From a virus: DNA of 64,000 nt. The DNA lies in IMG/VR virus record IMGVR_UViG_3300045988_160359, positions 53,570-117,569 of that record; one strand, given 5' to 3'. The notes beneath the pieces are model-generated. The model saw only the letters and a program-made list of their open reading frames with translations. It was not told the origin of the DNA and ran no database searches. Shown piece after piece: positions 27,826 to 55,461 of the stretch (the stretch's first letter is position 1; every line of letters begins with the position of its first letter). The translations under genes and the position numbers were made by a program.

Positions 27826-27901
27826 GTAAATATAAATAATATTTTGATGTAAATTTTTATAATAAATGTATATAATTTACAAAGAGGAAAGGAGTTATAA
27901 A

Positions 27902-29569
27902 ATGCTTAAAAAAGGCGATATAATTACTCTTGACTTAGGTGATGGATATGGTAATAGAAAATATCGTATTTTAAAAATAGATGGCCCTATAGCTGAAGTT
28001 TTAGGTTTATTTGATTTAAATTATGGACAAGTAATACCTTACACTAAAGATGTATCTCACACAATTACAATTGGTAATATTACTTTCCAAAATTATAATA
28101 ACAATGAAATTGATCAATTTATAAATAATGAATGGTATAATGATCATTTATCCAATAAAGCAAAATCAGCAATTTAGCCATAGTTATTTAATCAAGATGT
28201 TTGGTATTTTACTATTAACGGTTATTTACACAATGGTTCTCCTAAATATAATGGCGTTTATAGTAATGGTAGTTATCAAATTAGTAATGCTGGTATATTT
28301 TCTACTATTGGACCTAAATATATTCGCATCCCAGGAGTCCAAGATATTTTAGATTATTTTGCAGATAAAGATTTAAGAGTCGATCCTGAGGGTATATTTT
28401 CTAGTAAAAATATTTGGAAAATGTTTTGGGATCAAGATAAGGGCAACTCTGAAATGATGTGGCTGTCTTCTAGTTCTGCCAATGATTCTACAAAAGTTGG
28501 ATTTATTGATGGTTCTACTGGATTAGTAAGTATGCAAGGAACTGCTACTTATATAGGTACAGTTCATCCAATATTTACTATTGATTTAACTCAATTTTTA
28601 CCTTTAGAATTTAAACAGTATATTTCTCCTTATACAAATACAGTTATTTTACAAGATGATGCATTAAATTTATTAATGCGTATGACAAAATGTTATCCTA
28701 TTGCGGGAGATGGTACTGGTATTACTTTGGTTCCTACTCCAGATGATTAGCATATTCAAATATAGAATGCTATAAAAATTTATTCAGTCTTAAGTGATGG
28801 AACGGCTGAAGAAAAAGAAAAGCATCCAGGATGTATTTGCATTTGGGATACTTCAGCTAGCAAAAATAATAAACAATATATTTAGGCTGGTTCATTATTA
28901 GATTTTTATACAAGTGAATTATCATCTGGCCTTAAAGGAAAAGACATAAAAGCTAATCAATATGGCTCTTTTATTCTTATTAAAAATAAAGATTATAAAA
29001 ATCCTATTGTAGTTCCTATTAAAGGATTTGACAGCCAAGGAAATTTAATTTTACCAGGAAAAAAAATTCAATCTGCTATAATTGAATCTACTGGAGCTAT
29101 TACGGCCACTGGTAATATTACTTCAAGTGCTATTATCACAGGGAAAAAAGTGCGTGGTGCAGTATTTAATGATTATGCTGAGTATAGAGAATCTTATATT
29201 AAAGAGCCTGGCCGTTGTGTAATTGAAACTGGTTATGGAGATTTAGAATTGTCAACTAAACGTTTACAATTGGGCGGCAATATTATTTCAGATACATTTG
29301 GTTTCTCTATTGGCGAAACAGATAAAGCACAAACTCCTATTGCTGTTTGTGGTAGAGTATTAGCTTATCCTGATGAAAATAAAGAATTATATAAGCCAGG
29401 AGCGGCTGTGTGCAGTGGTCCAAATGGAACTGTGTCATTAATGACTCGTGAAGAAATTAAAGAATGGCCTGATGCAATAATTGGGTATGTAAGTGAAATT
29501 CCTTATTATGATACTTGGGGAACTGATAATATTAAAATAAATAATAGAATTTGGATTAAAATAAAATAA
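27902..29569 (+). CDS. Tail fibre-like protein (555 aa) with a conserved C-terminal module shared with the 33640-40170 fibre
   Basis: RBS aggaaaggag is followed by ATG 27902. The frame-2 fragments 27866, 28421 and 29150 fuse via TAG. The C-terminal 135 aa (NDYAEYRE...DTFGFSIGETDKAQTPIAVCGRVLAYP...CSGPNGTVS...RIWIKIK) is about 55% identical to 39760-40170. The gene stops at TAA 29567-29569. Confidence 0.7.
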
Positions 29570-29612
29570 AAAAAAATAGCAGATAACTGAAATGTTATCT
29601 GCTATTTTTTAT
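29570..29612. terminator. Bidirectional rho-independent terminator (A9, then atagcagataac-tgaaat-gttatctgctat, then T6)
   Basis: A perfect 12-bp stem is flanked by an A-run and a T-run. It lies at the convergence of the + gene ending at 29569 and the - gene ending at 29705. Confidence 0.85.
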
Positions 29613-29704
29613 AATTCAGTTGATATATTTTTAAAATAACTAATTTGATTATTTATATCATATACCCCTGAAACAATAATTCTTTTTAATGTAAAATTAT
29701 CATT

Positions 29705-30919
29705 TAAATTAGTATAGTCATTAGGAATAAGTGCCTCAAAATTTACATAATAATAATCAATATCTTTATCATATATATGTTGTCCTACATTAATTATTGA
29801 CCAAATTGTATCTTTAAATTTTATTTTATTAAATTTTATATTATCAAAATAATTTATTGCAATTAAATATAATAAATTTGCTGGTGTTTCACGGTGATTA
29901 ATAGTAAAAGTAGAAGTATTTACATCTCCAAAATACTAATAATTACCTGTCCAAACTTGAGGCATTGTATCCATATTAACATAAATTACTTTATTATTAT
30001 CATATTCCCATTTTGTTACTACAGTATTATGAGTATTTTCAAAATATATGGCAAAAGGTATTGTTATTGGTAGTGTTATTTTATTAAAATTTAAAAGAAA
30101 AGCATAATATAATGTTGTATTATTTTTTGCTGTCTCAAATTCTGTTGCATTTTGGATAGTATGATTGTCATCTGTAAAATAAAGAGAATAATATCCTTTA
30201 CTAAGCCAAATATAAAAAATTGAATTTATTTCTAAAGCATTTACTTCTTCTGTTGAAAGTTTAACTAATTCAGACCCAGAGCGTTTATATATTCTATCCT
30301 CATAATTTTCTTTATAATAAGTTAATTCTTCTACAGTTTTACAATTTATATCAATGAAATCAGTATCTGCTTTAGTAAAATAATAAACATTTTCATTATA
30401 ACTTTGTTTAGGGTCTACGGGATAAAAATTCGTTTCTTGACTGGTAATATAAACAATATTATCATAATTAGAATTATTAAAATACTGTTGAACTTCTTCC
30501 AAAGCTAAATAACGATATTTACCTAAATTTTCATTCTGTAAATTAAACAAAGCTGTTTTTAAATTTAAATTTAATTCTGCAATTTCTTGAGCAGTAGGTA
30601 ATGGTAATGAATCTTTTAGATTATTTTCAATTGATTCAATTTTATTGGCATTTATACCTGTTGTGGTAATAAGAGTGCCAATATCACTTTTATTAGAGTT
30701 TATTCTGTCATTTAATTTTTCTTGCTAAGTTGATAAATTATCAATAGTATTTTTAAGAGTTTCTAATGATTCAACAGTTTGCTATAAATTTGCTATTTTA
30801 TTCTATAAGTCAATAATATCCTAAGCATTGATATCATCAAAATTTAAATTATTAATTTTATTTAAAATTTCTTGCCACAAAGCTTTAATGCTTTCATCGG
30901 TCCAATAATAATTATTCAT
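29705..30919 (-). CDS. Coiled-coil protein (404 aa) on the opposite strand inside the structural block; TAG-recoded
   Basis: Reverse-strand RBS ggagg is followed by ATG (cat at 30917-30919). ORF 29936..30550 ends in TAG, not a true stop. Reading continues through 5 TAG codons in total to TAA (tta at 29705-29707). Confidence 0.6.
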
Positions 30920-31000: not shown

Positions 31001-31029
31001 TTGACATTTATAATTTTTTATGGTATACT
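31001..31029 (+). promoter_or_regulatory. Sigma70-like promoter (TTGACA, 17 bp, TATACT) for the radical-SAM cassette
   Basis: The -35 TTGACA is at 31001-31006, a 17-bp spacer follows, and the -10 TATACT is at 31024-31029. The RBS aaaggaga and ATG 31056 lie downstream. Confidence 0.55.
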
Positions 31030-31055
31030 TAAATTATATGAAAGGAGATTTGCGA

Positions 31056-31832
31056 ATGGCAGCAACTGATTTTTCTTCTTTATTTGCTGGAGAAAAAATA
31101 AAAAAAGCAGATTTAATTTAGTTAAAACAAGAAATACGTGAAATGATATTAAAACGTATGTATAATATTAATATTTCACAATATGGTTCTAGTTTATATG
31201 ATTATACTGATTCTTAGAAAGATTTAACACTTCAAGATGAAGAGATTATTAATGATTATTTTAATAAGATTTTAGAGCCTATGCAAGCCATTAATCCTAC
31301 TAAATTAGGATTTAACGAAAAATATGATGCCACCTCTAAAAAAACAACTCTTTTCAAATAGGATGAAGCTATTCCAAATTTAAAAGAATTAATTTCATTT
31401 TTTTAGATTTGCCAAGCTGAAAAAAATCAAAATAAATTAGATATTAGTAAGAGTAATTGTTTAAATCAATGTACTGGCATGTGCGTTAACTTATGTGCTA
31501 CTGGATGTACTGCACGTTGTGCTAGTAGTTGTTCTGGAGACTGTGAAGGTCGAACTTGCCAAAGTGGTTGTGATGCAGGTTCAGGAGGCTCCACTCCAAA
31601 CCCTGATCCTACACCACCCCCTAGTGGAGGAGGCGGCGGTGGGTGTCCTTGTACTGGAAATTGCACGGGAAGCTGTAATATTGCTTGCACAACTACTTGT
31701 CACGGTGGATGCCGTGGAGGATGCTCTGGGTATGCTTGCAGAAATGATTGTAATAACACATGCTCTGGCAACTGTGGTCGTAGCACTTGTACGGATATAT
31801 GTAATGGTGGTACATAGGGCTCTATGCATTAA
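31056..31832 (+). CDS. Cys/Gly-rich protein (258 aa): N-terminal ~150-aa domain plus a C-terminal ~110 aa with ~32 Cys in C-x3-C/CxxC repeats; candidate radical-SAM substrate/precursor
   Basis: Frame 0 was verified open from ATG 31056 through 4 TAG codons into the GC-rich segment 31466-31830 (CTGMCVNLCATGCTARCASSCSGDCEGRTCQSGCDAG...GGGGGGCPCTGNCTGSCNIACTTTCHGGCRGGCSGYACRNDCNNTCSGNCGRSTCTDICNGG). The gene stops at TAA 31830-31832. Confidence 0.7.
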
Positions 31833-31865
31833 TATAAAAAAGAGTAAAAGGAGATTTTATTATAA

Positions 31866-32144
31866 ATGATTAAAAAAGTTCAAATTCCTCAAGAAATTAT
31901 TTTAGAGGTTCAACGATTATGGTTTGAATATCAATCTAATTTAAATATTTTAGGTTATTTAATGACTTAGAATGATATTAATAAAGAATTATTAGCAGAA
32001 TATAATTAGGATACTAAAATTCGATTTACTGAATGTGAAATGTATAAACAAAAAATAGCAGATTTATATAACCCCTTTGATTTTAATTGTCAATATATTT
32101 TTGATTTTGATAATAGTTTAATTCAATATAATAAAAATGATTAA
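31866..32144 (+). CDS. Small protein (92 aa) between the Cys-rich gene and the rSAM gene; possible PqqD-like recognition/chaperone partner (speculative)
   Basis: RBS aaaggag is followed by ATG 31866. The gene has 2 TAG and its TAA at 32142-32144 overlaps the rSAM ATG 32137 by 8 nt. Confidence 0.5.
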
Positions 32145-33495
32145 AAGAAATAAAATTCAAGAACATTCAGAAATAATTCATAATTTATATAAAGAGTTAT
32201 ATCCTAACGCTAATAATATTTTATGTCCTTCAATTACATTTCAAGTAACGGACGATTGTTGTTGTAACTGTAGCTATTGTTATCAAGGAAATAAAAATAA
32301 ACATTATATGACTCCTGAAACTGCTATACAAATTGTTGATTATTTATTTGATCTATATGAGAAAAATGATATTAATAATTTGATTAATAAAAATACAGCA
32401 GGTATTATATTAGAATTTATTGGTGGAGAACCATTGATGAATATTGATGCTATTGATGCGGCTTGTACTCATTTTTTAAATTATTGTTTAATTCATAATC
32501 ATCCTTGGCTACGAACTTTTAGAATTTCAATGATCTCTAATGGAAAATATTATTTTGATTCAAAAGTTCAAGATTTTTTAAAACGTTTTCATAATTTTAT
32601 TTCTTTTGGTATTACTTTAGATGGCCCAGAAGATATACACGACAAATGTCGTAAATATTTTGATGGAACAGGTAATTTTAAAGATGCTTTTGCAGCATTA
32701 AAATACCATAATCAGCATTATAATTAGATTAGAACCACCAAAGTCACTATTGCTCCAGAAAATTTATTAGAGATAAATAAATTAATTGATTTCTTTATAA
32801 ATGAAGCTGGCGCTACTGATATTTTTATGAATCCTGTATTTGAAGCAGAGTGGACTAATGAAGAAGCTTCTATTTATTATTAGGAATTAAAAAAAATAGC
32901 AGATAAAATGTTAAATGTTAATCAATCAAATGAATTAATTAATAATATAGTATTTGCTGATAATATTGGATACCCATTAGAGGATACTGATACTTTAAAT
33001 TGGTGCGGTGGTACTGGCGCAATGATGAGTTTTGATTATAAAGGGAAAATTTACCCTTGTATTCGATATATGGAATCATCATTGGGGAAAGAAAGAGAGC
33101 CTATTATAATTGGTTCTATTAATACAAATGATAATAATGAAAAATATTTAAAGAATTTAGAAAATTTAAAAAAAATTACTCGACAATCTCAATCTACAGA
33201 AGAATGCTTAACTTGTCCAATTGCTGCTGGATGCGCTTGGTGTTCTGGGTGGAATTATTAGTTATACGGCACACCCAATAAACGCTGTACTTATATTTGC
33301 CCAATGCATAAAGCTCGTGTCTTAGCAAATGTTTATTATTGGAACAAGCTTTATAAGATTAAAAATCAAGATAAAGTATTTGAGTTAAATCTTCCAAAAG
33401 AAGAGTGTTTAAAATTTATTAATGAAAATGAATATAATATGTTGTTAGAATTAATTCAAAAATAGAAGGACAAAATAAATCAAATAGATAATTAA
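32137..33495 (+). CDS. Radical SAM / SPASM-domain enzyme, anSME (anaerobic sulfatase-maturating enzyme) family peptide-modifying maturase
   Basis: It has the CxxxCxxC motif (DDCCCNCSYCY), GGEPL, SNG, the LDGPEDIHDKCRK motif (compare anSME LSMDGPKEIHNLNRK), and a C-terminal SPASM cysteine array (CGGTGAMMSFDYKGKIYPC ... ECLTCPIAAGCAWCSGW ... CTYICPMH). ORFs 32137..32727 and 32908..33261 are joined through TAG in frame 1 (lines checked). The gene stops at TAA 33493-33495. Confidence 0.8.
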
Positions 33496-33558
33496 CTCTT
33501 TCAAAAATATATATGAAAGAGTAAGATACCTTTCAAAATATTATAATTTTATTTATTT

Positions 33559-33608
33559 TTATGGGAAAGTCTTACTATAGGCTTTCCCATTTTATTTTTT
33601 TTATTTTT
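33559..33608 (+). terminator. Rho-independent terminator (atgggaaag-12 nt loop-ctttcccat followed by T-rich tract)
   Basis: A 9-bp perfect stem at 33561-33569 and 33582-33590 is followed by tttattttttttatttt. Confidence 0.8.
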
Positions 33609-33639: not shown

Positions 33640-36600
33640 ATGGCTTTATTTAAAATTAATAAAGGTTTAGCAACAAACTTAGCAAAGAATATGCCTTATG
33701 CCAAAGAAGGCTTTGCATATTTTACTAAAGATGATGGTAAATTTTACATTGATATTGATGGTGATGGTACTACTACTAAAGCTGAAATTAATGTCAATCG
33801 TATACCATTAAATGCTGCTAAAGCTGATATAGCTACAATGATTCAAGCTACAGCAATGGCAACTGATGATAGTAAAGTATATCCTATTTTAGCATTTAAT
33901 ATAACTGATTCTACTAAGAATTTAGTTGAAGCTAAATATAGTCAAATTGGTATTAAAAATGGCACTCTTGTTATTCCAAGCGTTGAAGATAAAGATGAAA
34001 TCCTTATTTCTAATGAGGGTCTTGGTCGTGGTATTGTTATTGATAATAAAGGTACTAACAATGCTATTGAAATTCTTAATGGTAAAGGTATTAAAGTTGC
34101 ACAAGATCCAACTGAAAATTTAGAATTAACTACTAAATAGTATGTTGATAATAAATTAGCTAATAAATCAAATACCGGACATAATCATGATGCAACCTAT
34201 AAAAAAATTCAAACAGCAGTACCTAGTCCTAAAGCATCTAATACAGATATTTCATTTATTGATACAGTATCATAGGATACTTAGGGTAAAATTACTGCTA
34301 CTAAAAAAACAGTAAGAGATGCTTCAGCTAGTCAATCTGGTGTTGTATCTACTGGGACTCAAACATTTGCCGGAGAAAAAACATTAAATAATAAAACTCA
34401 TTTTTCTAAAGGCTTTGATCTAAAAACTGATAGCGGAAATGCTTAGTTTAACGCTAATACTGTAAGTGTTAGCAGTGGTACTGATTATGTTGATTTATAT
34501 GCCTCTACTATTGGAGGTGGAAATGGCAATAAGGCTAGACCATTAGTATTAAATGCTAATGCAAATGGTTCTGGTAATGTAGGTATTGGAATTACTTAGC
34601 CAACAGAGAAATTAGAGGTAGATGGCAATGTTAAAGCTATTTAGTTTAAAGGTAATGCTGATACAGCTGATAAATGGAAAACGATTAGAAAACTAACAAT
34701 TGGTTCCACGGGAAAAGATGTTGATGGTAGTGCTGATGTTAACTGGTCATTAGATGAAATTGGTGCAGCTGCAAAAAAACATACCCATACTAAATCAGAT
34801 ATTACAGATTTTGCTCATGCTCATGATGACAGATATTATACTGAAAATGAGATAAATGATAAATTAAAAGCGATTAATGATAAAATTGGGGCGTTATTAG
34901 GAGCTAATGATGCCTTAGTATTTAAAGGTACTATTGACGGAAAAAATCCCTTACCTACTGCTAATTATGAAGTAGGTCATACATATAGAGTTAATGAAGC
35001 TGGTACATATGCAGGTTAGAAATGTGAACAAGGCGATTTAATTATTTGTATTGCTGATGCATTATCTACAAGCACGCCTCATTGGACTGTCGCACAAACA
35101 AATATCGATGGGGCAGTAATTGGACCTGTTAATGCTACTGGTGATAATATTGTTTTATTTAATGGAGCTACTGGTAAATCAATAAAAGACAGTGGTAAAA
35201 AATTAAGTGATTTTGCTCCAAGTAAACACGATCACATTATTACAGCAACTGCTAAAAATGATGGTGTTGTAGTATTAACAGGAACAAGTGGCACTAATGC
35301 CGTTACTTATGAGGCTACTCATGCAAAGAAGGGGCCAAACACTGCTGCTAATACAGTAAAAGGTCCTGCTGAAGATGTATCAATTAGTGGAGCGGGTAAA
35401 TCAGGTTCAATTGTAATTCCAAAAGTAACTGTAGATGCATATGGTCATACTACTGGATTAACTGAATAGACATTAACAATTACTCTTCCTAATGATACTC
35501 ATCATCAAAGTAGTACAGTTATTACAGATAATACAGCAGGGACAACAAATAAAGCCTCGGAAAATGGTAAGACTTATTTAAATCATATTGAAAACGGTGT
35601 AGTTCGTAGTACTCATAAAATAGTAGGGGCTGGTAGTACAAAAGTTTCAAGTGATGATGATGGAGTTCTTACGATTACATCTAAAGACACTGTTTATAGT
35701 CATCCTACCACTCCTGGTAATATACATTTACCAGCGGGAGGAAAAGTAGGCGATGTATTATTATGTGCTGGTGATAATACTGGAGCTGGTAAATGGGGTA
35801 TCGATCCTAATATTAAAACTGCCATTGATAATTTGGACGTTGATGAAACCGGTGGCGAGGGTAAATATATTCAGGCGATTAAACAAGTTGATGGTAAAAT
35901 CGTTGCTACAGCCGAAACAATTGATACTACCTTAAGTGCTTCAAGTACCAAACCAGTTTAGAATAAAACAGTAAATGATGCTCTAAGTAAAAAAGTTAAT
36001 ACTACTACATTTAATTCTCATACAGGTAATATGACTATGCATATTACGGATGATGAGCGTATTAAGTGGGATGCTGCATATACACATTCTCAATCAACAC
36101 ATGCTCCTGCAAATGCTGAAAAGAACCAAAATGCATTTAGTAATATTCAATTAAATTCTGATACAAAAAATATTATTAAAGCAGATAATGCCACTGATAC
36201 TATGATACTAAAAAGTGGCGATAATATTTAGATTACTGGTGATATTGAGACTGATACAATTATTATTAGTGCTACAGATACGAAATATAGTAATGCCTCT
36301 ACTGAGTCTTCTGGATTAATGTCTGCGCAAGATAAGAAAAAGTTAGATGGTATTGCATTAAATGCTAATAATTATTCGCATCCAACAACTGCTAAGCATG
36401 AGGCAGCAGCAGTTAAAGTAGGAAATGATGAACATGGTCATGTAGTTTTAGGTAGTGTTCTTACTAAGAGTGATGTAGGTTTAAGTAAGGTTGGTAATTT
36501 CTTAGCTGTTTCTACTGTAGCTGATCAAAATTTAACTGAGGATTAGAAGTCTAATGCTAGAGCGAATATTGGTGCTGGCACTAGTTCTCTTACTATTGGT

Positions 36601-39600
36601 AAAGGTGAAAATGATGCAGCGGCGGGTAATCATACTCATAATTATGCTGGCTCAGCTAGGGCCGGCGGTCCAGCAAATTCAACTAAGGGTACATTAACAT
36701 TAAAAGCTGGAAAGAATACATAGACATTTAATGGTAGTGAAGATAAAATATTTACAATTACTGCTAGCGATTTAGGATTATCTACAGCAATGCATTTTAT
36801 TGGTATTGCCACTAAAGGTCCAATTGCAGATAATTTTGATCCAGGTATTGCTAATTATGGTTTTACTAATGCTCAAACTGGTGATGTTATTATTTCTAAA
36901 GATGGAGATCAAGAATATGTTTTAATTATTAAAACAGATGCTAATAATAATCCAGTATACCATTGGGAATTACTTGGTCCAAATGGAAGTTATGCAATAT
37001 CTGACCATAAACATTCTAGCGCAGATATAAATTCAATGACCGGATATGCTAAAGGCACGGCAAAGGCACCTATTACAATTAATGATACTCTTAACACAGC
37101 AATTGGAAAATTAGAGTATAAAGTAGACAATAAAGTTGATTAGACCGCTGACAAGGGTTTATCAACTAATGATTTTACTAATGCTTATAAATAGAAGTTA
37201 GATGGTATCGAAACTGGAGCTCAAAAAAATCAAAATACATTTAGTAATATAACTATTGATAAGAAAACTATTAGTGCTGATAGTGCTACTGATACATTAA
37301 CATTAGTAGCAGGAAGTAATGTAACATTAACTCCTGATGTAGATAATGATAAAATTACTATTGCTGCAACAAATACTGATACTAAAGTTACTGCGGTAGA
37401 AAATCACTATACTCCAAAAGCAGATCCAAATGCAGCTTTATCTATTGATGCTTCTAGTACTACAGCTGCCATTTGGGACACAACAAATCTAGTTACTGGT
37501 GTTAATTTACAACGTGATGCTAAAGGCCATGTAACAGGTGTTACTGTTGATTCAATTAAAATGCCTGCTAATCCTAATACTAATACTCATTATACTAGTA
37601 AAAATATAATTGGAGATTCTGCTACTGCTACAGCAAATGCGACTGCGACTAATGGCAATGTTTATTTAAATCATTTAGAAGAGAGTGTAGTAAAAAGCGC
37701 GCATAAAATTAGTGGTGCTGGTGCAACAACAGTTACATCGGATGGTTATGGTAATATTACTATTACATCTAAAAATGACAATACTTGGCAAGCAAATACT
37801 AAAGATGCTAATGGTTATGTTACTGCACCTGGTGCTGTGGCTAATAAAGTATGGAAAACTGATGAAAAAGGTAATCCTGGTTGGCGTGATGATGCAGGCA
37901 CAAATTCGGTGACCGGACCTAATTCTTCTACTGTAAATGCTGTTCCCACATTTGCTGATGCAACAGGTAAAGTCATTAAAAATAATTCAGCAGTTACTAT
38001 TAATGATACTGGATTATTTACTGCTCCTTATATTGTTACAGGCACTGATAAAACTCATTATTTTCAAAGTAGAAAATTCCGTGGTGAAGGCAATGCTGAT
38101 ACATATTATCATGCTATTGATTTTGGATATAGTGGACATAATCAAGTTGATTTTCATGAATATGGTGGAATTTGGAATTTCTATGAAAATACTAAAGGAA
38201 CTGCGGCTGATGGAAAATTAGTTGCTTCCATTAAGCCTGATGGGTTTCATGGCAATTTAAACGGTAACGCAACCAGTGCCGATAAAGTTAATAATAATTT
38301 AGTTATTAAGCTAAACAGTGGAACTACTGAAGGAACAAACCAATTTACTTATAATGGTAGTGCTACTAAAAATATTAATATAACTCCAGCTAATATTGGA
38401 GCGGCTTCAAGTTCTCATAATCATGATTCTAGTTATGTTAAAAAATCTGGAGATACCATGACTGGCGATCTTAAATTCTAGAAAACTAATAGTGATGGTA
38501 CAACTTCAATAACTGCTACTATTGGAGCTATTACAGGATATATTACTGGTACGTGGCTTCAAACAACAAATGTTGGAAATAAAGCTGGAGATTTTGCTAC
38601 TATTGATAGCTCTGGTTGGATTTATAAACGAACAGCAGCACAAGCAAGACAAGATATGGGTCTTTCAACTGCTATGCATTTTATTGGCAAAGCGACAGTT
38701 GATATTACAGACGGCAGCACAGTTGATCCTAAAATCACTGGCTATACGACTAAAACTGCCGGTGATGTAATTATTGATAAAAATAATTCATATGAATACG
38801 TTTGGACATTAGAAGGAAAATGGGAACGTTTAGGTCCAGATGGCAGCTATAGCGTAGTCGGACACACTCATGATGATAGATATTTAAAATTAACTGGCGG
38901 AACATTATCTGGTGATTTATTAATTACTGATAAAATGTATGGATTTAAAATTGGTGCTTCTTCTTCTAATATTTGGCTTGGATTAGAACGAAGTAATATG
39001 GGAGAACCCCAATATGGATTATATGACCATTTAATGGGACAATGGATTTTAGAAAGTAATGGAACTCTTGCTAAATTCCACGGCTGGTCAGATGGAGCGT
39101 TTACTGCATCAAATGATTCTGATGGCAATCCAATTTCATCTACTTATGTTAAAAAAGCCGGTGACACAATGACCGGGGATTTAACTCTTAATAAAAAATT
39201 AATAGCAAATAATCTTATAGTTTTAAAAAATGGATAGACTTATGGAACCAGCGCTCCTACCAGTGGCACAGCTGGCCAATTATTCTTTGCCCAAGATACT
39301 AGTGATTCAGATTATTTGCCATTAACAGGTGGCACATTAAGTGGTAATCTAACTCTTAATGAAAAATTATTAATTACTAATAAAATGTATGGAACTACAA
39401 AGCCTAGCAATCCAGTAGAAGGACAAATTTTCTTCCAAGAGAATGATGGTTCTTTAACATTACCTGCTGGAGGAACAGCTGGATAGTATTTAGTTAAAAA
39501 TAGTTCTAATGATAGCGATGCTAGTTGGAAGAGTTTACCTGCATTAAATTATTTACCATTATCTGGTGGTACTTTAACAGGAAATCTTACTATTTCTCGT

Positions 39601-40170
39601 TCAGATACAAATGATGCTACTGTTCGTGTTACTAATTCAAAAGGATCTATCGGATTATTATCTTCTACCAATTGTGGTCTATATGATTATACTAAGAGTA
39701 AATGGTTAATTTATACAGATGGTACAAAAGCTTCAACTTCTTACGCGCTATATGGTGCAGTGTGGAATGACTATGCTGAATTCCGTGAAGGAGATACTAT
39801 TGATGCTGGTCGTTGTGTAGTTGAAGTTGGTGATGATACTCTTATTACTTCGACTGAACGTTTGATGCCGGGTGCGAATATTACATCTGATACATTTGGT
39901 TTTGCTATTGGTGAGACTGAACAAGCTAAAACTCCAATAGCAGTAAGCGGACGTGTTTTGGCTTATCCATATGAATCTCGTGAAGAGTTTAAAAAGAATG
40001 TTGGACGTCCAGTATGTTCCGGCCCTAATGGGACAGTTTCTATTATGACTGATGAAGAATATAGAAATAAAGGTTATTGTGCGATTGGCACGATTTCAGC
40101 AGTTCCTGATTATGAAGAATGGGGAACTGGAAAAGTTAAAGTTAATGGGCGCGTATGGATTAAAGTGTGA
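33640..40170 (+). CDS. Giant tail fibre (2176 aa) with HxH motifs and repeated GGTLTGNL/GDTMTGDL fibre repeats; conserved C-terminal module
   Basis: RBS gaagggag is followed by ATG 33640. The N-terminus LFKINKGLATNL...GFAYFTKDDGKFYID carries the tail-fibre motif. Frame 1 is line-aligned, and every line from 34081 to 36060 was checked to contain only TAG. ORFs 33640, 36031, 36319, 36790, 37561, 38656 and 39760 are all in the same frame. Motifs include YVKKSGDTMTGDLKF, LPLTGGTLSGNLTLN, HTHTKSDITDFAHAHDDRYY and TAGQLFF / TAG-(TAG)-YLV. The gene stops at TGA 40168-40170. Confidence 0.8.
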
Positions 40171-40191: not shown

Positions 40192-41913
40192 ATGGCAACT
40201 TATGATTTAGCAACAACATCTCCAAGTTTTACTTCTTTACGAGCCGGAGATATTATAAATTGTTCATATAGTGGAGCAAAAAAAAGTATTGATCTTCCAG
40301 CTGGTACTTATAAATTAGAAGTGTGGGGCGCTTAGGGAGGTAGTAGAAATACTAACAATCAAGGTGGTCCAGGAGGTTATTCAGTAGGTACTTTAACATT
40401 AACTACTAAAACAACGCTTTATATTTATAGTGGAGGGCAACCAACAGCAGTAAAAGTTGGAGGATTCAATGGCGGTGGAGCTGGTTATAACTCTGGATAT
40501 GGAGGAGGTGGAGCTTCTGATATCCGCATCGCTAAAGATAGTTTATATGCTAGAGTAATTGTTGCTGGCGGCGGAGGAGGAGCTTGTTATTCAGTTACTT
40601 TAAAAGGAGCTGGCGGAGGTACATAGGGCCTCGGAGGATATAATAATGAAACAACTATTGCTGGAAGTAATAGAAGTGGCGGTGGAGGCACTCAAACTCA
40701 AGGAGGCCATCCTTACTCTATAAGTGCTACTACTTATCCTGAAGCTGTTGGAACTTTTGGAAAAGGTGGAGCTGGTGGTGCAGGTAAAACTGGATATAGT
40801 TGTGGTGGAGGCGGCAGCGGCTGGTATGGCGGCGGCGGCGCTTATGATAATGATTCTGACTCTGACGGAAGAAGTGGAGGCGGAGGTAGTGGGTATATTT
40901 ATACCACTAGTACTGCTGCTAATTATCCATCTGGATGTTTATTAAATAGTAATTATTATTTAGCTAATGCTTCTACAAAAAATGGTACTGTTTCATTTGT
41001 AAAACCTGCGGGAGGAAATGAAACAGGGCATACTGGCAATGGATATGCTCGTATTACTATATTAACTACAACAGCGAAAACTACTTATACTTTCAATGCT
41101 AATGGAGGCGCTTCTACTCCCGCTTCAATTACTGTAAATTGGGGAACGACTAAAACACTACCTTCTGCTATTAATCGAGCAAGTAAGGGAGTTAATTTTA
41201 CTACTCTTTGTTACGGTGCAGGTGGTACAGATGTAACAGCTACTGGGCTAAAGACCGCTAATTATACATTTGCTGGATGGAATACTAATGCTCAAGGAAC
41301 TGGGACTAATTATAATGCAGGAGCATCTATCTCATCATCAGGATCAATTGATCCTGTTACTTTATATGCAAAATGGAATGTTAGTTATAGTTATAGTGCT
41401 AATAATCAAATTAAAACTATTCCCCATCCTACCCGAGCTAATTCTACTACTTCTTTTACTATTAAAGGAAATTGTAATGGTGGCATAAATAACACTTCAT
41501 TAACTGGCAATTAGACTATTTCTTATACTTTTACTGGATGGAATAGTTAGTATGATGGGAAGGGCACAGCTTATGATATAAATTCAACTGCTACATTTAA
41601 TGAAAGTACAATACTTTATGCCCAATGGAATTAGACAATATCTTATAATAATAATACTATTAATCTATTACCAATTCCTACTCGGTCTAAATATATTTTT
41701 ACAGGATGGAATACCGCAGCAAATGGTAGTGGAGGGACTTATCCTAAAGGCTCTACTGAATAGATTAAATCACCATAGACGTTATATGCTCAATGGTAGA
41801 GAGAAGCTTACAATTATGTCCCGTTTATTTATACAAATGGAAAATGGGTAAAAATGACTCCATTAATTTATAATAATGGAACTTGGACAAATAGACTAGT
41901 TGATTTAAAATAA
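40192..41913 (+). CDS. Glycine-rich-domain protein (573 aa) with C-terminal Listeria-Bacteroides (Flg_new-type) repeats; candidate cell-wall-binding tail protein
   Basis: RBS taaaggagag is followed by ATG 40192. Frame 1 was checked line by line from 40201 to 41911 (7 TAG). The N-terminal half has GGxGG tracts. Three C-terminal repeats of the form YTF(A/T)GWN(T/S)...G(T/S)(G/A)Y......TLYA(K/Q)W are present. The gene stops at TAA 41911-41913. Confidence 0.7.
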
Positions 41914-50840: not shown

Positions 50841-51437
50841 TTAATAAGTTATGTCCAGATGCTCCGGCCACCGAGACAGGAATAATGCTAAATCTTTATA
50901 TATACATTCTAATTCCGCAGGAGTATTATTTATATATAACCAATTACATAAATCATCAGCATCTTCAAAATCAAGTTTATCTGTTTTATATCGACGAATA
51001 ATTTCATCAATATCCGGGTTAGCCTCTCGATTTAGCTATCTAATTAATCGAATTTTATCATCTGCGTGAATATAAACGATAATTAAATTTACTCGTTTAT
51101 CATGTAATAAAATCTCTGCGCCTTCTGGATTAAATACTCCTACATTGATAGCGCCTTCTTTGACTGATTCAATTCCTGTGCCATAGCACCATTCATTAAA
51201 AACAGTAGCTTCAAACATTTGATTCTATAAAATCATTTCAGCAAATTTTTCTGCTGAGATAAAATGGTAGTTAATACCATCCACTTCTTTTTCTCTTGGA
51301 GGTCTTGAAGTATAACTTATAATTTCATGTAGAGGTAATTTACCATTATAATAATGTTTTGTATCATCAATTAGTTTACGGAGAATGGTATCTTTACCAC
51401 TCCCCGCTTCACCAATTAATGCTAATATATTATACAT
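50841..51437 (-). CDS. gmk: Guanylate kinase-like nucleoside monophosphate kinase (198 aa), with 2 in-frame TAG
   Basis: It has Walker A GEAGSGKDT and the guanylate kinase signature TSRPPREKEVDGINYHFIS...CYGT. ORFs 51225..51437 and 51036..51218 are joined through TAG 51225-51227, and a second TAG lies at 51036-51038. It stops at TAA (tta 50841-50843). Its ATG overlaps the dnaE TAA (TAATG). Confidence 0.7.
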
Positions 51438-54400
51438 TAATTAGCTCCTCCATTGTATCTTTCATCTTTTAATTCAATATCACCATTATCTAAAATTTTA
51501 TCAATTTTATACAACTGGTGACCGCCAGAACTAGCATACTTTTTTGCTATAAAATTATCGCCTTGACGAATGCCTTGAACAGCAATCATATTACCACGAT
51601 TAAACCAACTTTTTTCCATTACTTTTTTAGTGCCATCAATTTGTTTTTCTGAAATCTGTTTATCAAATAATGAGAAATATTCTTTTCTAAATTTAACTTC
51701 GACAACTCCAGAAGTAGTAAGTAATGTAACTGTAGATTTAGTTTTATTTTTAGCAATACAAGTTCCGCAAATCTTATGTAATTTATACATAGTAATTGTT
51801 TTATTGCCTTTAGAAAATGTTTTATCAATAATGGGCTCTTCTGGCAGATGGAAGAAATCAACAAATCCATATTTACTATTATTTACATGGGCTAATTCAT
51901 GCTCATGATAATAGAAACATAAGACTTCCATTTCCCACGCTGAAATAGATTTAGATGCATATTTATCCCAATCTTCTTTAAATATTTTATTATTTAATTT
52001 ATTTAAAATAATATCTTTATTTTCTGCAATCCAAGTTCGGAATATATCCATATATTTTTGATATACTTTATCCCAAGCTTTAGAATCTAATAAATAACAA
52101 CTACCAATTAAATCATCGCAACCAATTTCAATTAAAAAATTAATCGCTCGTTCATCAACTTTATAGATATTACCATCTTTACAAACAGCTTTTAAATATC
52201 TATTAAATTCATAAACTCGTCTTGCCATTACATATTCATCTTTATCTTCTGGTAATAAATTATAACGAATTAGAGTTGCTAAATTTTGTAATGTTAAACG
52301 AGATTTTTTATCACACGTTTCCCAAATATACCAAATCATTAAATCTTTACGGTCCATCATTTCATCAAATGCACCGCTTTTAATCAATGAAATCATTGCT
52401 TGCTTACTTGGTTTAATACGATAATAAAAATCTTTCACTGATATATACGGACGATTTGCAATAATATTATTAATCAAATCATCGCCAACGTTCAACAATC
52501 CTTTTAAGCCAAATAAAATTTGGTTATTTTCAACATCAGGCGCAAATCCAAATCTAGCTTTATTAATATCAGCCAAACTTACTTTAATACCAGCTGACTG
52601 TATATCTCCAATAGCTTTTGCGATTTTACCATAATCAGTGCTAGCTACTTTTTTATTTTTTGATTTATTCTCCATTATATCTTCTGGAGACGCACCACAA
52701 TATTCTTCACCGGAATAATCATAATCTTCATCAGTTATTTCTTCTGGTTTATTTTCTAACGCTCCACTGTTTACAATTAAACAAGCGCAATTCCAATAAA
52801 TAGGATTGAAATTAATTGCCAAATAAATCATTTGAATTGCAACAAATGAATAAGGAAGAGAGTGATTTAAGCTAAACGCATATCCTAACTGAGGAGCGAT
52901 CGCATTTTCCCAAAAATATTCAGCATTATGTTCATTAGTAAATTTACTAAATACTTGCTCTTTTAATTGAGGAATTTTTGCCATTTGCTTTTTAGCAACA
53001 ACTTTACGCGCGCTATTTGCTTCGCCTAATGTAAATCCAGCGACATCCATAAGGATTTCCATCATTTGCTCTTGAAGTGGACAACATCCATAATATCTAT
53101 CACAATGCTTGTGCATTTTTTCAATCATTTCTTCTGGCAAATGATTATCTTTCATTTCTTTATCAAAAACTTGAATACCAGCTTTTTGGATTCGATAATA
53201 TCTATCTTGCTGACTTTCTTTGCCCTTTTCACTCATTAGACGCATCATAGCGTTTGCAGCGGTCATTTCCATAGGATCTTTTGGTTTCAATTTTTTAGCA
53301 ATAGCTAAACCTACACCAGTAGAGAATTGGAATACGTCAAGAATATCTCCCGCCGCCAAGTGTTCCCAAATGCGTTTATCAGAAGTATCTATTACTTCTG
53401 GATGAAGATATTTATTATAAAAATCACGTAGACCAATATCAGGGATTTGATTATCTTCTTTTAATAAATTATAGCATTGAATAATTTTATCGCAAGCTTC
53501 TGTTACCAGGAAGTCATATTTAGTATCTCCGGCGGCTTCGGCTTTATGTAAGTCCCAACAAGTAATTAAATCACCACTAGGAGTTTTCATAAATGATGCA
53601 GTTTCAAATGGGTCTTCACCATATAAAATAACACCAGAAGCATGAGAAGAACGTTTATTAATAATTCCTTCAATATATACAATAATATCCAATAAACCAG
53701 GATATTGATTTACCTTTTGGATAAATGTAGTAACTGGCTTTCTATCTTTATCAGGATTACCATTTACCACATCTTTCATCGGCCATAAAATTCCACGTTC
53801 CTGCGGGATTAATGAAGACATAAATTGAGCTTCATCTACATCAATACCATTGGGATAATCATCACTTCTATAGCCACGACAAGCAGTTAAGATTGCTTGC
53901 TTTGTTCCTTCAGTTCCAAATGTTGCAACTTGAATTAAACCTAATGTTCCACGTTCTTTACGAATAGCACTAAAAATTGCAGGGCGTTTACTTGGCGCAA
54001 GATCGATATCAATATCAGGCAATTCCGCGCGCTCTAAATTTAAGAAACGCCAATATGGTAATCCCCAACGAATTGGATCTAGCTGAGTAATTCCTAATAA
54101 ATAATTAGATAAGAAACCAGTTGCTGAACCTCGACCAGGACCAACAATACTCCCGCACTCCCAAAACAAATCAATATAATGTTTAAATGTATTAAAATAA
54201 GCAAACAAACAGTCTTCAAGTTTTTCGCCAATATTTTTAATTACATTAGCTTCAGTTTCAAGACGAGATATATATATTTCATTCTCATATAATTGTTTTT
54301 CTTGCAAGGCTTTAATACATTCATTTATCCAATATCGTTCTTGAATATCATCACTATTAATTAATGAACAAATAACAGGATATTTCTCAAGCCAATCTGC

Positions 54401-55390
54401 TGGAATAAATCCTTTTTTATAATCAATTACTTCTACTCTTGGAATTTGTTGTTTACGTTCCAGAGAATAAAATTTTATTTTCTTTTGAATTTCTAATGTA
54501 TTGTCAAAAATCCAATTCATAATCTCTTGAGGAGTTTTATCTTTATCCCAAGTATCCATATATGGTAGCATTAATTCTTCTACTTCATCACTATCCATTA
54601 CATAAGCAAACTCATAGAATGAATCAACTTCACGCTCGCCATCTTTAGAATTTAAATAAGCTTTATGAATTGGTCTATCTTTCTTTGTTAAATAATGAGC
54701 ATCGGTTCCAATTACCATTTTTAAATCATATGCTTTTGCTACTTGATAAATCTTTTGATTTACTACAAGTTGGTCTTTCATGGTAGATGGAGCGCACTCC
54801 AAATAAAAATCATCTTTACCAAAAACATTTATACAAAATTCAATGAATTTAACAACATTATTATAATAAATGCTTTTAGTTTGCATATCGCCTACTACTT
54901 CAGCCTCATACATTGGATATAAATTAGAACCTAATTCTCCACCAATGCAAGCTGTTGTTGCGATAATATGTCCTTTGTATTGTGCCATTACATTTTTTAA
55001 TTCAGACTTTAATGTTGGCACACGTTCCATTTTTCTATCAGTATAAGAATTAATCCAAGCAATTGAACTTAATTCTTTTAATGCTTTATAACCAATTTCA
55101 TCTTTTGCCAATAGAATAAAATGATAATACTTTTGACCACAATCTCTTGTATCAGTTAAATAAATTTCATTACCTAGCGCAATAGTAAAATCAGGATGCT
55201 CTTTTAAAAAATCTTTTGCAAATTGATTAACTTCCATATGAGCAGATAAACAGTCATGGTCAGTAATTGCTATACCACTTAATCCTAATTTTTCTGCTGT
55301 TTTAATCAACTCTTCTGGTCTATTAATAGAATCTAATAAACGCAGATTTGAATAGTGAGTATGGTTGTGTACGCCAAAATATGGTCGCAT
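51437..55390 (-). CDS. dnaE: DNA polymerase III alpha subunit (DnaE-type C-family polymerase) with N-terminal PHP domain
   Basis: The 1317-aa protein has a PHP domain (HNHTHYSNLRLLDSI...ITDHD) and the polymerase core motif GSIVGPGRGSATGF. The start was chosen at the second ATG (55388-55390), which has the strong RBS aaagaggtgga. The first ATG at 55408 lacks an SD. There is no in-frame TAG. Confidence 0.85.
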   Translation of the reverse strand: MRPYFGVHNHTHYSNLRLLDSINRPEELIKTAEKLGLSGIAITDHDCLSAHMEVNQFAKDFLKEHPDFTIALGNEIYLTDTRDCGQKYYHFILLAKDEIGYKALKELSSIAWINSYTDRKMERVPTLKSELKNVMAQYKGHIIATTACIGGELGSNLYPMYEAEVVGDMQTKSIYYNNVVKFIEFCINVFGKDDFYLECAPSTMKDQLVVNQKIYQVAKAYDLKMVIGTDAHYLTKKDRPIHKAYLNSKDGEREVDSFYEFAYVMDSDEVEELMLPYMDTWDKDKTPQEIMNWIFDNTLEIQKKIKFYSLERKQQIPRVEVIDYKKGFIPADWLEKYPVICSLINSDDIQERYWINECIKALQEKQLYENEIYISRLETEANVIKNIGEKLEDCLFAYFNTFKHYIDLFWECGSIVGPGRGSATGFLSNYLLGITQLDPIRWGLPYWRFLNLERAELPDIDIDLAPSKRPAIFSAIRKERGTLGLIQVATFGTEGTKQAILTACRGYRSDDYPNGIDVDEAQFMSSLIPQERGILWPMKDVVNGNPDKDRKPVTTFIQKVNQYPGLLDIIVYIEGIINKRSSHASGVILYGEDPFETASFMKTPSGDLITCWDLHKAEAAGDTKYDFLVTEACDKIIQCYNLLKEDNQIPDIGLRDFYNKYLHPEVIDTSDKRIWEHLAAGDILDVFQFSTGVGLAIAKKLKPKDPMEMTAANAMMRLMSEKGKESQQDRYYRIQKAGIQVFDKEMKDNHLPEEMIEKMHKHCDRYYGCCPLQEQMMEILMDVAGFTLGEANSARKVVAKKQMAKIPQLKEQVFSKFTNEHNAEYFWENAIAPQLGYAFSLNHSLPYSFVAIQMIYLAINFNPIYWNCACLIVNSGALENKPEEITDEDYDYSGEEYCGASPEDIMENKSKNKKVASTDYGKIAKAIGDIQSAGIKVSLADINKARFGFAPDVENNQILFGLKGLLNVGDDLINNIIANRPYISVKDFYYRIKPSKQAMISLIKSGAFDEMMDRKDLMIWYIWETCDKKSRLTLQNLATLIRYNLLPEDKDEYVMARRVYEFNRYLKAVCKDGNIYKVDERAINFLIEIGCDDLIGSCYLLDSKAWDKVYQKYMDIFRTWIAENKDIILNKLNNKIFKEDWDKYASKSISAWEMEVLCFYYHEHELAHVNNSKYGFVDFFHLPEEPIIDKTFSKGNKTITMYKLHKICGTCIAKNKTKSTVTLLTTSGVVEVKFRKEYFSLFDKQISEKQIDGTKKVMEKSWFNRGNMIAVQGIRQGDNFIAKKYASSGGHQLYKIDKILDNGDIELKDERYNGGAN

Positions 55391-55461
55391 AATCCACCTC
55401 TTTCTCATTTATTTTATTTATAATAATATTATATCATATAATTTATTATAAATCAATTGAA

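Follow-up and report, generated by a model that had tools for sequence, protein, structure and literature searches.

The closest described counterpart of the locus analysed here is the CXXX-repeat system, a family defined by comparative genomics whose kind is already named in NCBIfam. Its enzyme (TIGR04115, 'radical SAM peptide maturase, CXXX-repeat target family', curated cut-off 350 bits) is accompanied by a partner of roughly 90 aa (TIGR04116, CXXX_rpt_assoc, cut-off 50 bits) and by target peptides (TIGR04114, TIGR04117 and TIGR04118, cut-offs 20, 50 and 35 bits). The TIGR04115-type family comprises at least 4,568 proteins at E below 1e-30, and a full-text literature search returned no experiment on any TIGR04115 member and nothing on phage cassettes of this type. 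Among related radical SAM enzymes, PapB forms the six Cys-X3-Asp S-C-beta links of freyrasin, CteB forms the Cys-Thr S-C-gamma link of thermocellin/SCIFF, and QhpD, a radical SAM/SPASM enzyme, equips the gamma subunit of quinohemoprotein amine dehydrogenase with Cys-Asp/Glu thioethers (PMC11002830).

In a 64,000-nt stretch of DNA from a gut phage (the window; positions 53,570 to 117,569 of IMG/VR record IMGVR_UViG_3300045988_160359), we confirmed a three-gene cassette between a promoter and a terminator, with all of its features on the + strand. The predicted sigma-70-like promoter (31001-31029) carries the TTGACA-17-TATACT sequence described in the initial annotation together with a TG extension; it matches the consensus at 11 of 12 positions, is the top-scoring site within 29.4-34 kb, and is the only intergenic + strand site in the whole window to score at least 11/12. 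The large structural genes of the window are without comparable sigma-70-like promoters. Downstream lie g1 (31056-31832), encoding the 258-aa substrate protein, with a GGAG ribosome-binding site 8 nt upstream; g2 (31866-32144), encoding a 92-aa partner protein as had been noted, also preceded by GGAG; and g3 (32137-33495), encoding a 452-aa radical SAM/SPASM maturase. The last 8 nt of g2 also belong to g3, and g1 sits 305 nt 5´ of g3, in agreement with the earlier description of three co-directional, coupled genes. That description also placed the cassette between two terminators. An intrinsic-terminator-like hairpin of 12 pairs followed by a T run (33561-33600) does flank it directly downstream, but the other terminator (29571-29610) is 1.4 kb upstream, past a divergent gene on the - strand (29609-30919).

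All three genes require that TAG be decoded as Gln. Reading through TAG raised the summed ORF length from 47 kb to 71 kb, and in-frame TAG codons were found in g1 (five, the earliest at codon 22), g2 (two) and g3 (four). Those of g3, at codons 197, 249, 375 and 445, line up with Gln in relatives, upholding the original view of a genome that reads TAG as sense. There were 161 TAG codons per 14,087 aa for the late strand compared with 25 per 6,450 aa for the other, and a search of the window for a suppressor tRNA found none. Because g1, g2 and g3 all contain TAG, their full-length products would appear only after phage TAG-to-Gln decoding starts, so that this dependence would time their expression with that of the structural genes.

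The g3 product matched TIGR04115 over profile positions 3-359 of 359 (338.1 bits, E 8e-101), 12 bits under the curated cut-off and 185 bits over the next family. Relatives score on both sides of 350 bits: 521 (L036), 463 (L006), 386 (L014) and 377 bits (L002) above it, and 331 (P0180), 312 (L042) and 301 bits (L004) below it; L002, L014 and L006 are phage or prophage relatives with the same type of substrate as g1. The other profile scores were 152.6 bits for PapB (cut-off 340), 80 for QhpD, 68.6 for the SCIFF maturase (cut-off 425) and 51.8 for anSME (TIGR03942, cut-off 349). With the PapB and SCIFF maturase scores below their cut-offs, membership among the ranthipeptide maturases was not found for g3, and the anSME family to which the enzyme had been assigned at the outset (52 bits) gives way to TIGR04115 (338 bits), with PapB (153 bits) also ahead of it. 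A match to phrog_1802 was obtained as well. The CX3CX2C radical SAM motif (32257-32280; C41, C45 and C48 in CCCNCSYC) and the SPASM region (33004-33300; C290, C308, C357, C360, C366, C369 and C388) are invariant in the alignment. The full SPASM cysteine array that had been claimed is thus present, with all seven Cys kept, and the SAM-cluster cysteines, examined as a possible refutation, are intact. Over residues 290-384 the TIGR04085 SPASM domain scored 26.2 bits (cut-off 27). The sole PDB sequence relative of g3 is CteB (5wgg, E 2e-13). Since this alignment begins at residue 94 of CteB, and g3 has its SAM motif as early as residue 41, g3 is without a fused RRE; neither an RRE (PqqD-like) domain on g3 nor a discrete RRE protein was found. 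A search for cultured-phage relatives returned as close ones only two unannotated faecal contigs. Jumbo-phage radical SAM enzymes (from SPN3US and from Erwinia and Campylobacter phages) were considered as relatives and set aside, being ~22% identical and of a different family.

The g1 protein consists of a conserved, Cys-poor, helical N-terminal domain (residues 1-134, 31056-31457) followed by two Cys blocks. Block 1 (residues 135-172, 31458-31571) has 10 Cys at a spacing of 4, save one of 5, and opens with an entry motif, C-x3-C-x-G-[LM]-C, that is invariant throughout the g1 family. A lineage-specific Gly/Pro-rich linker of 24 residues (173-196, 31572-31643) leads to block 2 (residues 197-249, 31644-31802), which has 14 Cys and begins CPCTGNC. 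This CPC-x-G-x-C start resembles the RWCPCQGTC found in the small precursors of L036 and L038. The reported length of 258 aa and the Cys-rich C-terminal part were borne out by the ORF and the residue count, but the ~32 Cys ascribed to the last ~110 residues were not: 20 Cys fall within the last 110 residues, 24 within the last 124 and 25 in the whole protein. Similarly, of the reported C-x3-C/CxxC repeats, the CxxxC units are there (18, with 3 Cx4C and 1 CxC), but CxxC units in g1 number zero. At 24 Cys per 124 residues versus 1.2% Cys across the other genes, the stretch is far above chance and is the sole Cys-rich one in any frame. Its local GC content is 48% versus 30% for the window, and tandem DNA repeats, looked for as an origin of the Cys periodicity, were not detected. 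The repeat domain is of low complexity, C-[S/T/G]-G-[S/G/T], with S/T/G/N mixtures at positions +1 to +3 and no conserved acceptor residue comparable to the Asp of PapB's CX3D. A scan of g1 for the C/S-x-P-x-R sulfatase motif was empty, as had been stated, and by eye no signal peptide was obvious at its start.

Against the target-peptide profiles, g1 scored 20.9 bits with TIGR04118 and 10.5 bits with TIGR04117, both below cut-off. Its homologues numbered 164 proteins, many of them tagged PF27846; one carries the NR name 'nematocyst outer wall antigen'. Residues 8-84 aligned with the phage CxxxC-protein family at 98.1% hhalign probability (E 7e-14), and g1 has the organisation that defines that family, a conserved non-Cys domain and then the entry motif. 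Substrates of the g1 family range from 143 to 371 aa and from 11 to 78 Cys, the leader-like N-domain being conserved and the Cys core hypervariable. At the domain junction, neither a double-glycine nor any other conserved cleavage motif was found, and the N-domain matched no known virion protein in fold or sequence (fold modelling for the family used member P0115).

For g2 itself, no NCBIfam match was obtained at E below 1. The g2 family adjoins the radical SAM gene in 29 loci, and TIGR04116 is the sole family that its members match recurrently (19 of 146 representatives, best E 6e-6; the L006 orthologue, E 0.005). By these profile matches g2 is distantly related to TIGR04116 and falls outside membership by the cut-off. 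The model of P0123, which is 93% identical to g2, has a beta-alpha-alpha-beta-beta order (pLDDT 94), and the PqqD/RRE-like fold for which the 92-aa protein was checked is not what g2 has.

Four viral contigs and about 34 prophages of Clostridia, or about 38 independent loci, have conserved the trio with g2 and the radical SAM gene coupled, and the radical SAM gene adjoins a CXXX-repeat protein in 34/38 genome loci and 4/4 viral loci. Candidate carriers of a trio-bearing prophage include Desnuesiella massiliensis mt10, Neglectibacter timonensis SN17, Anaerolentibacter hominis CSJ-1 and F. prausnitzii strain 2. In the genome loci, genes matching baseplate, tail-fibre and virion structural PHROGs lie upstream and holin and endolysin genes downstream; the cassette borders lysis genes in most prophages, and tail-fibre-like genes are on both sides of it in the window, L004/L085 and L020. 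The phage structural setting, at first taken to be unusual, is therefore typical of the clade, because the same trio recurs in these viral contigs and prophages. Where the 38 genome records name an organism, it is always one of the Bacillota, sampled as a MAG or an isolate from the gut or another anoxic source, and these organisms are obligate anaerobes. In most loci a protein of ~175-200 aa with no family match lies between substrate and partner; it is absent in this phage. The conserved trio itself includes neither an exporter nor a protease gene. As exceptions, L002 and L003 have a possible papain-like (Cys/His) peptidase directly upstream of the substrate gene. The same radical SAM clade also works on small peptides encoded beside ABC transporters: in L036 and L038 it adjoins precursors of 42-52 aa with CPC/CxxxC motifs, and across the survey three downstream neighbours, their loci not identified, matched ABC-transporter PHROGs. 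Radical SAM enzyme, partner and CXXX protein occur together in three gene orders with the substrate domains swapped, which argues for a functional link between enzyme and substrate. Public pipelines already name the phage homologues as a CXXX-repeat system. Collectively, these loci show that a major branch of the CXXX-repeat radical SAM family is a regular constituent of phages and prophages of Clostridia, situated between tail-fibre and lysis genes, and from sequence this branch is predicted to act on a protein-sized substrate.

On the basis of these comparisons, the cassette is very probably a phage-borne form of the CXXX-repeat radical SAM/SPASM maturation system, with a TIGR04115 enzyme and a TIGR04116-like partner. 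The profile searches and the occurrence of the trio in about 38 loci support the original proposal of a self-contained set of maturase, Cys-rich substrate and small partner. In the mechanism that we propose, g1 would be made in two parts, a helical recognition or anchor domain and then the Cys-repeat domain. We infer that g2, translationally coupled to the radical SAM enzyme, would stand in for the missing RRE domain and present g1 to g3, which would use reductive SAM cleavage and two auxiliary clusters to form many intramolecular sulfur-to-carbon thioether links in the repeats. The characterised families nearest to g3 by profile score (PapB, QhpD and the SCIFF maturase) are all Cys-thioether formers, and by homology we lean slightly towards thioether cross-linking of the g1 cysteines, although the repeat offers no conserved acceptor residue. 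A floppy repeat region would thereby become a covalently stapled module resisting reduction and proteases, standing in covalently for disulfides in phages whose hosts are strict anaerobes. Matured g1 would most likely be a low-copy tail- or fibre-associated virion component, and a virion-associated role is put forward tentatively. In favour of this role are the baseplate and tail-fibre genes around the cassette, the protein size of the substrates, the start of g1 without an obvious signal peptide and the absence of an exporter or protease from the conserved trio; against it, the g1 N-domain resembles no known virion protein and the cassette has a promoter and terminator of its own. That matured g1 is built into the tail or fibre apparatus, its repeats stapled by dozens of radical SAM-installed thioethers, we consider doubtful. 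For the explanation as a whole, a CXXX-repeat system yielding a thioether-stapled g1 that serves as a virion component, we regard the case as evenly balanced.

An alternative fate for the modified protein is release as a RiPP-like product, in which the N-domain would serve as an oversized leader or follower to recruit g2 together with the radical SAM enzyme, and the cross-linked core, freed at lysis, would act as a bacteriocin, signal or metal binder on bacteria, the host population or the gut environment. The g3 family consists of RiPP maturases, TIGR04118 bears the NCBI name 'rSAM-modified Cys-rich RiPP', and the small CPC/CxxxC precursors next to the same radical SAM clade (L036, 521 bits; L038), like the three downstream neighbours matching ABC-transporter PHROGs (loci not identified), are in line with such a product. 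So are the conserved leader-like domain and hypervariable core of g1, as in RiPP precursors; the moron-like possession of its own promoter and terminator, where the large structural genes are without such promoters; the lysis genes next to the cassette in most prophages; and the possible peptidase upstream in L002 and L003. However, TAG from g1 codon 22 on blocks expression in a lysogen using the standard code, the trio comes with no conserved protease or exporter, the junction of the g1 domains shows no conserved cleavage motif, substrate sizes, which reach 371 aa and 78 Cys, are far beyond those of RiPPs, and tail genes occupy both flanks of the cassette in several lineages. We view release as rather unlikely.

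It is improbable that g1 is a metal-binding, Fe-S-binding or disulfide-forming protein without enzymatic cross-linking while the radical SAM enzyme acts elsewhere, for example on phage DNA or a cofactor, in the manner of phage thymidine hypermodification clusters. Periodic CxxxC arrays are known in metal-binding and disulfide-polymerising proteins (the NR name of one g1 homologue refers to nematocyst outer wall antigen), and phage radical SAM enzymes with non-peptide substrates exist (PMC8989533). Yet the co-occurrence of enzyme, partner and CXXX protein in three gene orders with swapped substrate domains ties the enzyme to the protein, the best matches of g3 are all peptide maturases, and no DNA-modification genes adjoin the cassette. 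Formylglycine formation by g3 as an anSME, for which the SPASM architecture and the weak TIGR03942 match (51.8 bits) might speak, we judge to be exceedingly improbable and have rejected: that score compares with a cut-off of 349 bits and with 338 bits for TIGR04115, g1 has no C/S-x-P-x-R, and the genes inspected around the cassette are tail-fibre-like, with no sulfatase among them. The initial annotation had likewise called formylglycine generation unlikely, naming sulfatase/anSME pairs in homologous cassettes as the finding that would count against a peptide maturase; no sulfatase was paired with the enzyme in any homologous locus inspected.

The CXXX-repeat family is large, and the three-gene system offers a concrete route to its chemistry. 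The cassette also raises the idea that phages of anaerobes may harden a virion protein or a lysis-released one with enzyme-made thioethers. If g1 is indeed matured in this way for the virion, it would be the first radical SAM-matured virion protein, and a reduction-proof substitute for disulfides would be widespread in phages of strictly anaerobic gut Clostridia. Possible pay-offs are a new enzyme for stapling proteins by cross-links at multiple sites and a set of marker genes for one widespread gut-phage group.

Compared with the CXXX-repeat system as described, g3 matches the whole TIGR04115 profile, a partner of ~90 aa with a weak relationship to TIGR04116 adjoins the enzyme, and the target has C-x-x-x repeats. 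The differences are that g1, at 258 aa, has a conserved folded domain of ~105-134 aa, whereas the known targets are peptides of 42-98 aa; that the cassette is in a phage tail module, has no transporter and has TAG sense codons in all three genes; and that g1, g2 and g3 all score under the curated cut-offs. PapB and CteB, the next-best profile (153 bits) and the sole PDB relative of g3, likewise pair radical SAM and SPASM domains with substrates that have repeated, regularly spaced Cys donors. Unlike them, g3 carries no RRE fused to its N-terminus, no Asp, Glu or Thr acceptor is conserved in the g1 repeat, and substrates of the g1 type are 5-10 times larger, with up to 78 Cys. QhpD (80 bits) is a precedent in which the target cross-linked by a radical SAM/SPASM enzyme is a subunit of a functional protein and not a released peptide; it differs in belonging to a periplasmic dehydrogenase pathway with no phage link, in making three or four links, not dozens, and in a fused N-terminal extension (the g3 alignment starts at profile position 95). 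The anSME enzymes have the SPASM fold and auxiliary clusters in common with g3, but the profile score is 52 bits versus a cut-off of 349 and neither a sulfatase nor a CxPxR motif is present. Further afield, the minicollagens and NOWA of cnidarian nematocysts have CxxxC arrays that polymerise through disulfides. They share with g1 the CxxxC periodicity, a Gly/Ser-rich structural context and the idea of a tough cross-linked material, but use disulfide exchange, not radical SAM chemistry, and the resemblance is probably convergent.

With TAG read as sense, three co-directional genes lie on the + strand: g1, encoding the predicted Cys-repeat substrate (31056-31832, 258 aa), g2, encoding a small partner (31866-32144, 92 aa), and g3, encoding the radical SAM/SPASM enzyme (32137-33495, 452 aa). 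Both g1 and g2 have a GGAG ribosome-binding site, and the start of g3 lies 8 nt ahead of the g2 stop. The promoter-like sequence TTGACA-17-TATACT, with a TG extension (31001-31029, + strand), is the best match in the region and, among intergenic sites on the + strand across the whole window, the only one to reach 11/12; the tight coupling of three genes behind such a site, described in the initial annotation, was borne out. A 12-bp hairpin followed by a T run is found 3´ of g3 (33561-33590). A divergent gene (29609-30919, - strand) lies between the cassette and the terminator at 29571-29610, which had been taken as the direct upstream flank; the cassette consequently needs its own promoter. 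This 436-aa gene, with a coiled-coil N-terminus and five TAG codons, is the only - strand gene within the + strand structural block, and a family search gave no match for it.

The enzyme g3 matched along the full length of the TIGR04115 profile ("radical SAM peptide maturase, CXXX-repeat target family") and scored 338.1 bits (E 8e-101), where 350 bits is the cut-off. Lower-ranking families were PapB (153 bits), QhpD (80), HxsB, the SCIFF maturase (69), CcpM and CefB. The anSME family, to which the enzyme had originally been assigned, reached only 52 bits, and an anSME system was rejected as the identity of the cassette. The cluster cysteines reported earlier are intact: in an alignment with phage homologues, both the CX3CX2C motif (C41/45/48) and the full SPASM array (C290, C308, C357, C360, C366, C369 and C388) are invariant. 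Public pipelines already name homologous phage enzymes TIGR04115. A sequence comparison with the PDB found a single relative, the ranthipeptide maturase CteB; since the alignment begins at CteB residue 94, g3 lacks CteB's N-terminal peptide-recognition domain. Several phage homologues (P0166, P0189, P0197, P0213, P0219, P0258, P0275 and P0280) are 770-786 aa long with Hint/intein and LAGLIDADG Pfam domains; the maturase gene is split by an intein in some phages.

We counted 25 Cys in g1, rather than the ~32 first claimed, 24 of them in the last 124 residues. They fall into two blocks (135-172 and 197-249) joined by a Gly/Pro linker, with 18 spacings of four, three of five and one of two. This is the sole Cys-dense stretch in any frame of the window, where the remaining genes have 1.2% Cys; its GC content is 48% versus 30%, and a repeat check rejected a DNA tandem repeat as its basis. 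By its Cys-free N-terminal part, g1 falls into a family of 164 proteins, each ~190-225 aa long (hhalign 98.1%), no obvious signal peptide was seen by eye at the start, and NCBIfam profiles for the CXXX targets, TIGR04118 and TIGR04117, matched g1 weakly. Homologous substrates are 143-371 aa long and contain 11-78 Cys, and their repeat domains (24% Cys, 20% Gly, 18% Ser, 10% Thr) follow the consensus C-[S/T/G]-G-[S/G/T], spaced mostly by 4 and at times by 3. Across the family, the units that open the repeat, C-x3-C-x-G-[LM]-C, do not vary. In locus L034 (7014-8003) the order is reversed, with 59 Cys of repeats first and the conserved domain C-terminal. Tandem 42-52-aa precursors (…RWCPCQGTCGFTCAKQC…) lie beside the same radical SAM clade in L036 and L038, showing the classical RiPP form of this clade; on the TIGR04115 profile the enzyme of L036 reaches 521 bits, and the second Cys block of g1 starts with CPCTGNC, resembling these small precursors.

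For g2 itself, the NCBIfam search gave no direct family match. Within its family (365 representatives), the only recurrent match was TIGR04116 ("CXXX repeat peptide modification system protein"), found for 19 of 146 members (best E 6e-6). In most cassettes the substrate and partner genes are separated by a fourth one of ~175-200 aa (L006 5072-5629, L014 5086-5664, L002 7172-7696, L004 7086-7694 and others), for which a family search found no match; neither the window nor five other lineages (L008, L020, L021, L033 and L037) have it. Directly upstream of the Cys-rich gene, L002 (5975-6466) and L003 (5916-6401) encode a 161-163-aa protein of papain-like appearance (…EHGCGMIAAYNA…WHYVAFY…), without a Pfam match, which may act as a peptidase in substrate processing. 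This gene is absent from the window.

The trio is present in a near-identical 166-kb viral contig (L001), in 150-170-kb viral contigs without TAG recoding (L002 and L003, 57-59% identity), in an abundant human-faecal phage (L004 and L085-87, 36% identity) and in a second TAG-recoded lineage (L005). One-genome-per-species assemblies yielded 38 bacterial loci with an enzyme 35-48% identical, all of them belonging to Bacillota sampled from the gut or from other anoxic sources (Lachnospiraceae, Oscillospiraceae, Faecalibacterium, Blautia, Desnuesiella, Neglectibacter and others). A protein with the N-terminal domain and CxxxC repeats was found in 34 of the 38, and a recognisable g2 homologue in 26 (29 loci counting viral contigs L002-L004). 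The usual order is substrate, ~175-200-aa protein, partner, enzyme; two others also occur. Neighbours on the 5´ side are baseplate, tail-fibre, tail-collar and virion structural PHROGs, and on the 3´ side holins, endolysins, amidases or more tail genes; in the survey as a whole, three downstream neighbours matched ABC-transporter PHROGs. We conclude that the bacterial loci are prophages and that this clade normally resides where the tail genes of phages meet the lysis genes; the structural-module setting, initially regarded as unusual, is typical.

Tail-fibre-like proteins of the window (27866-29569 and 33640-40170, + strand), L004 (5412-6488) and L042 (2962-3996) have in common a C-terminal module, GAV[FWY]NDYAE…PIAV.GRV…W[IV]K, which is reminiscent of the self-cleaving intramolecular chaperone ends of S74 type; the 567-aa protein among them had no Pfam match at E < 0.1. 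Right after the giant tail fibre, a 573-aa protein (40192-41913, + strand) bears an ALK/LTK glycine-rich domain (PF12810, E 2e-45), unusual for a phage tail module, and three Listeria-Bacteroides repeats (Flg_new).

With TAG read through, the long ORFs of the window add up to 71 kb, compared with 47 kb otherwise. In two relatives, of 98% and 78% identity, Gln stands at the positions of the four TAG codons of g3, which also align with a conserved Gln (WNYQLYG) of non-recoded phages. The + strand structural genes are TAG-rich (161 in 14,087 codons), and the genes for the polymerase and NrdD, like several more on the - strand, contain no TAG. Decoding of TAG as Gln mainly concerns the + strand structural block. 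No tRNA genes were found within the window. As TAG occurs from g1 codon 22 onward, the cassette proteins would be completed only with phage TAG-to-Gln decoding on, alongside the structural genes; such decoding would gate their completion whatever the promoter does. The second recoded lineage, L005 (48% identity), is binned in an Erysipelotrichaceae MAG, and its enzyme gene has 13 TAG codons. The 1323-aa PolIII-alpha-type polymerase (51437-55408, - strand) shares ~39% identity with YorL of SPbeta-like Bacillus phages and with Enterococcus phage polymerases, a relatedness that points to a large phage infecting Bacillota.

PapB, CteB and QhpD each form a link between the sulfur of a Cys and a carbon in a different residue (PMC11002830). 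Because these nearest characterised relatives all make such links, multiple intramolecular thioethers most likely form along the g1 repeat. No conserved acceptor residue, which could have hinted at the type of linkage, was found within the repeat across the substrate family. Given that g2 always adjoins the enzyme gene, is translationally coupled to it in the window, and accompanies an enzyme without a recognition domain, g2 is the best candidate for an adaptor, which would bind the conserved domain of g1.

That the modified protein is virion- or tail-associated is our tentative reading, held at somewhat below even odds. It draws on the cassette being placed consistently within the tail module or at its end, on the protein-sized substrate, which by eye shows no obvious signal peptide, and on the conservation of the trio without a protease or exporter; we also count for it that the hosts are apparently strict anaerobes, in which we take disulfides not to be an option. 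A RiPP-like product set free at lysis seems somewhat less likely to us. Pointing towards release are the cassette's own promoter-like site and terminator, the conserved-leader, variable-core pattern of g1, the small-peptide cousins within the same enzyme clade and the possible peptidase upstream of the substrate gene in L002 and L003.

As compared by sequence, g1, g2 and g3 all map to one system defined by comparative genomics: by best hit, architecture and neighbourhood the cassette is assigned to the TIGR04115-04118 CXXX-repeat system, with each of the three proteins under the curated cut-offs of its families. This kind of system is already known and named in databases, and our literature search found no paper on the chemistry or phage association of the family. 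What is newly recognised is a large, phage-borne and tail-module-linked branch predicted to act on a protein-sized substrate. Although the cassette has no family membership in them, the ranthipeptide and QhpD-type thioether systems are the ones that it is predicted to resemble in its working.
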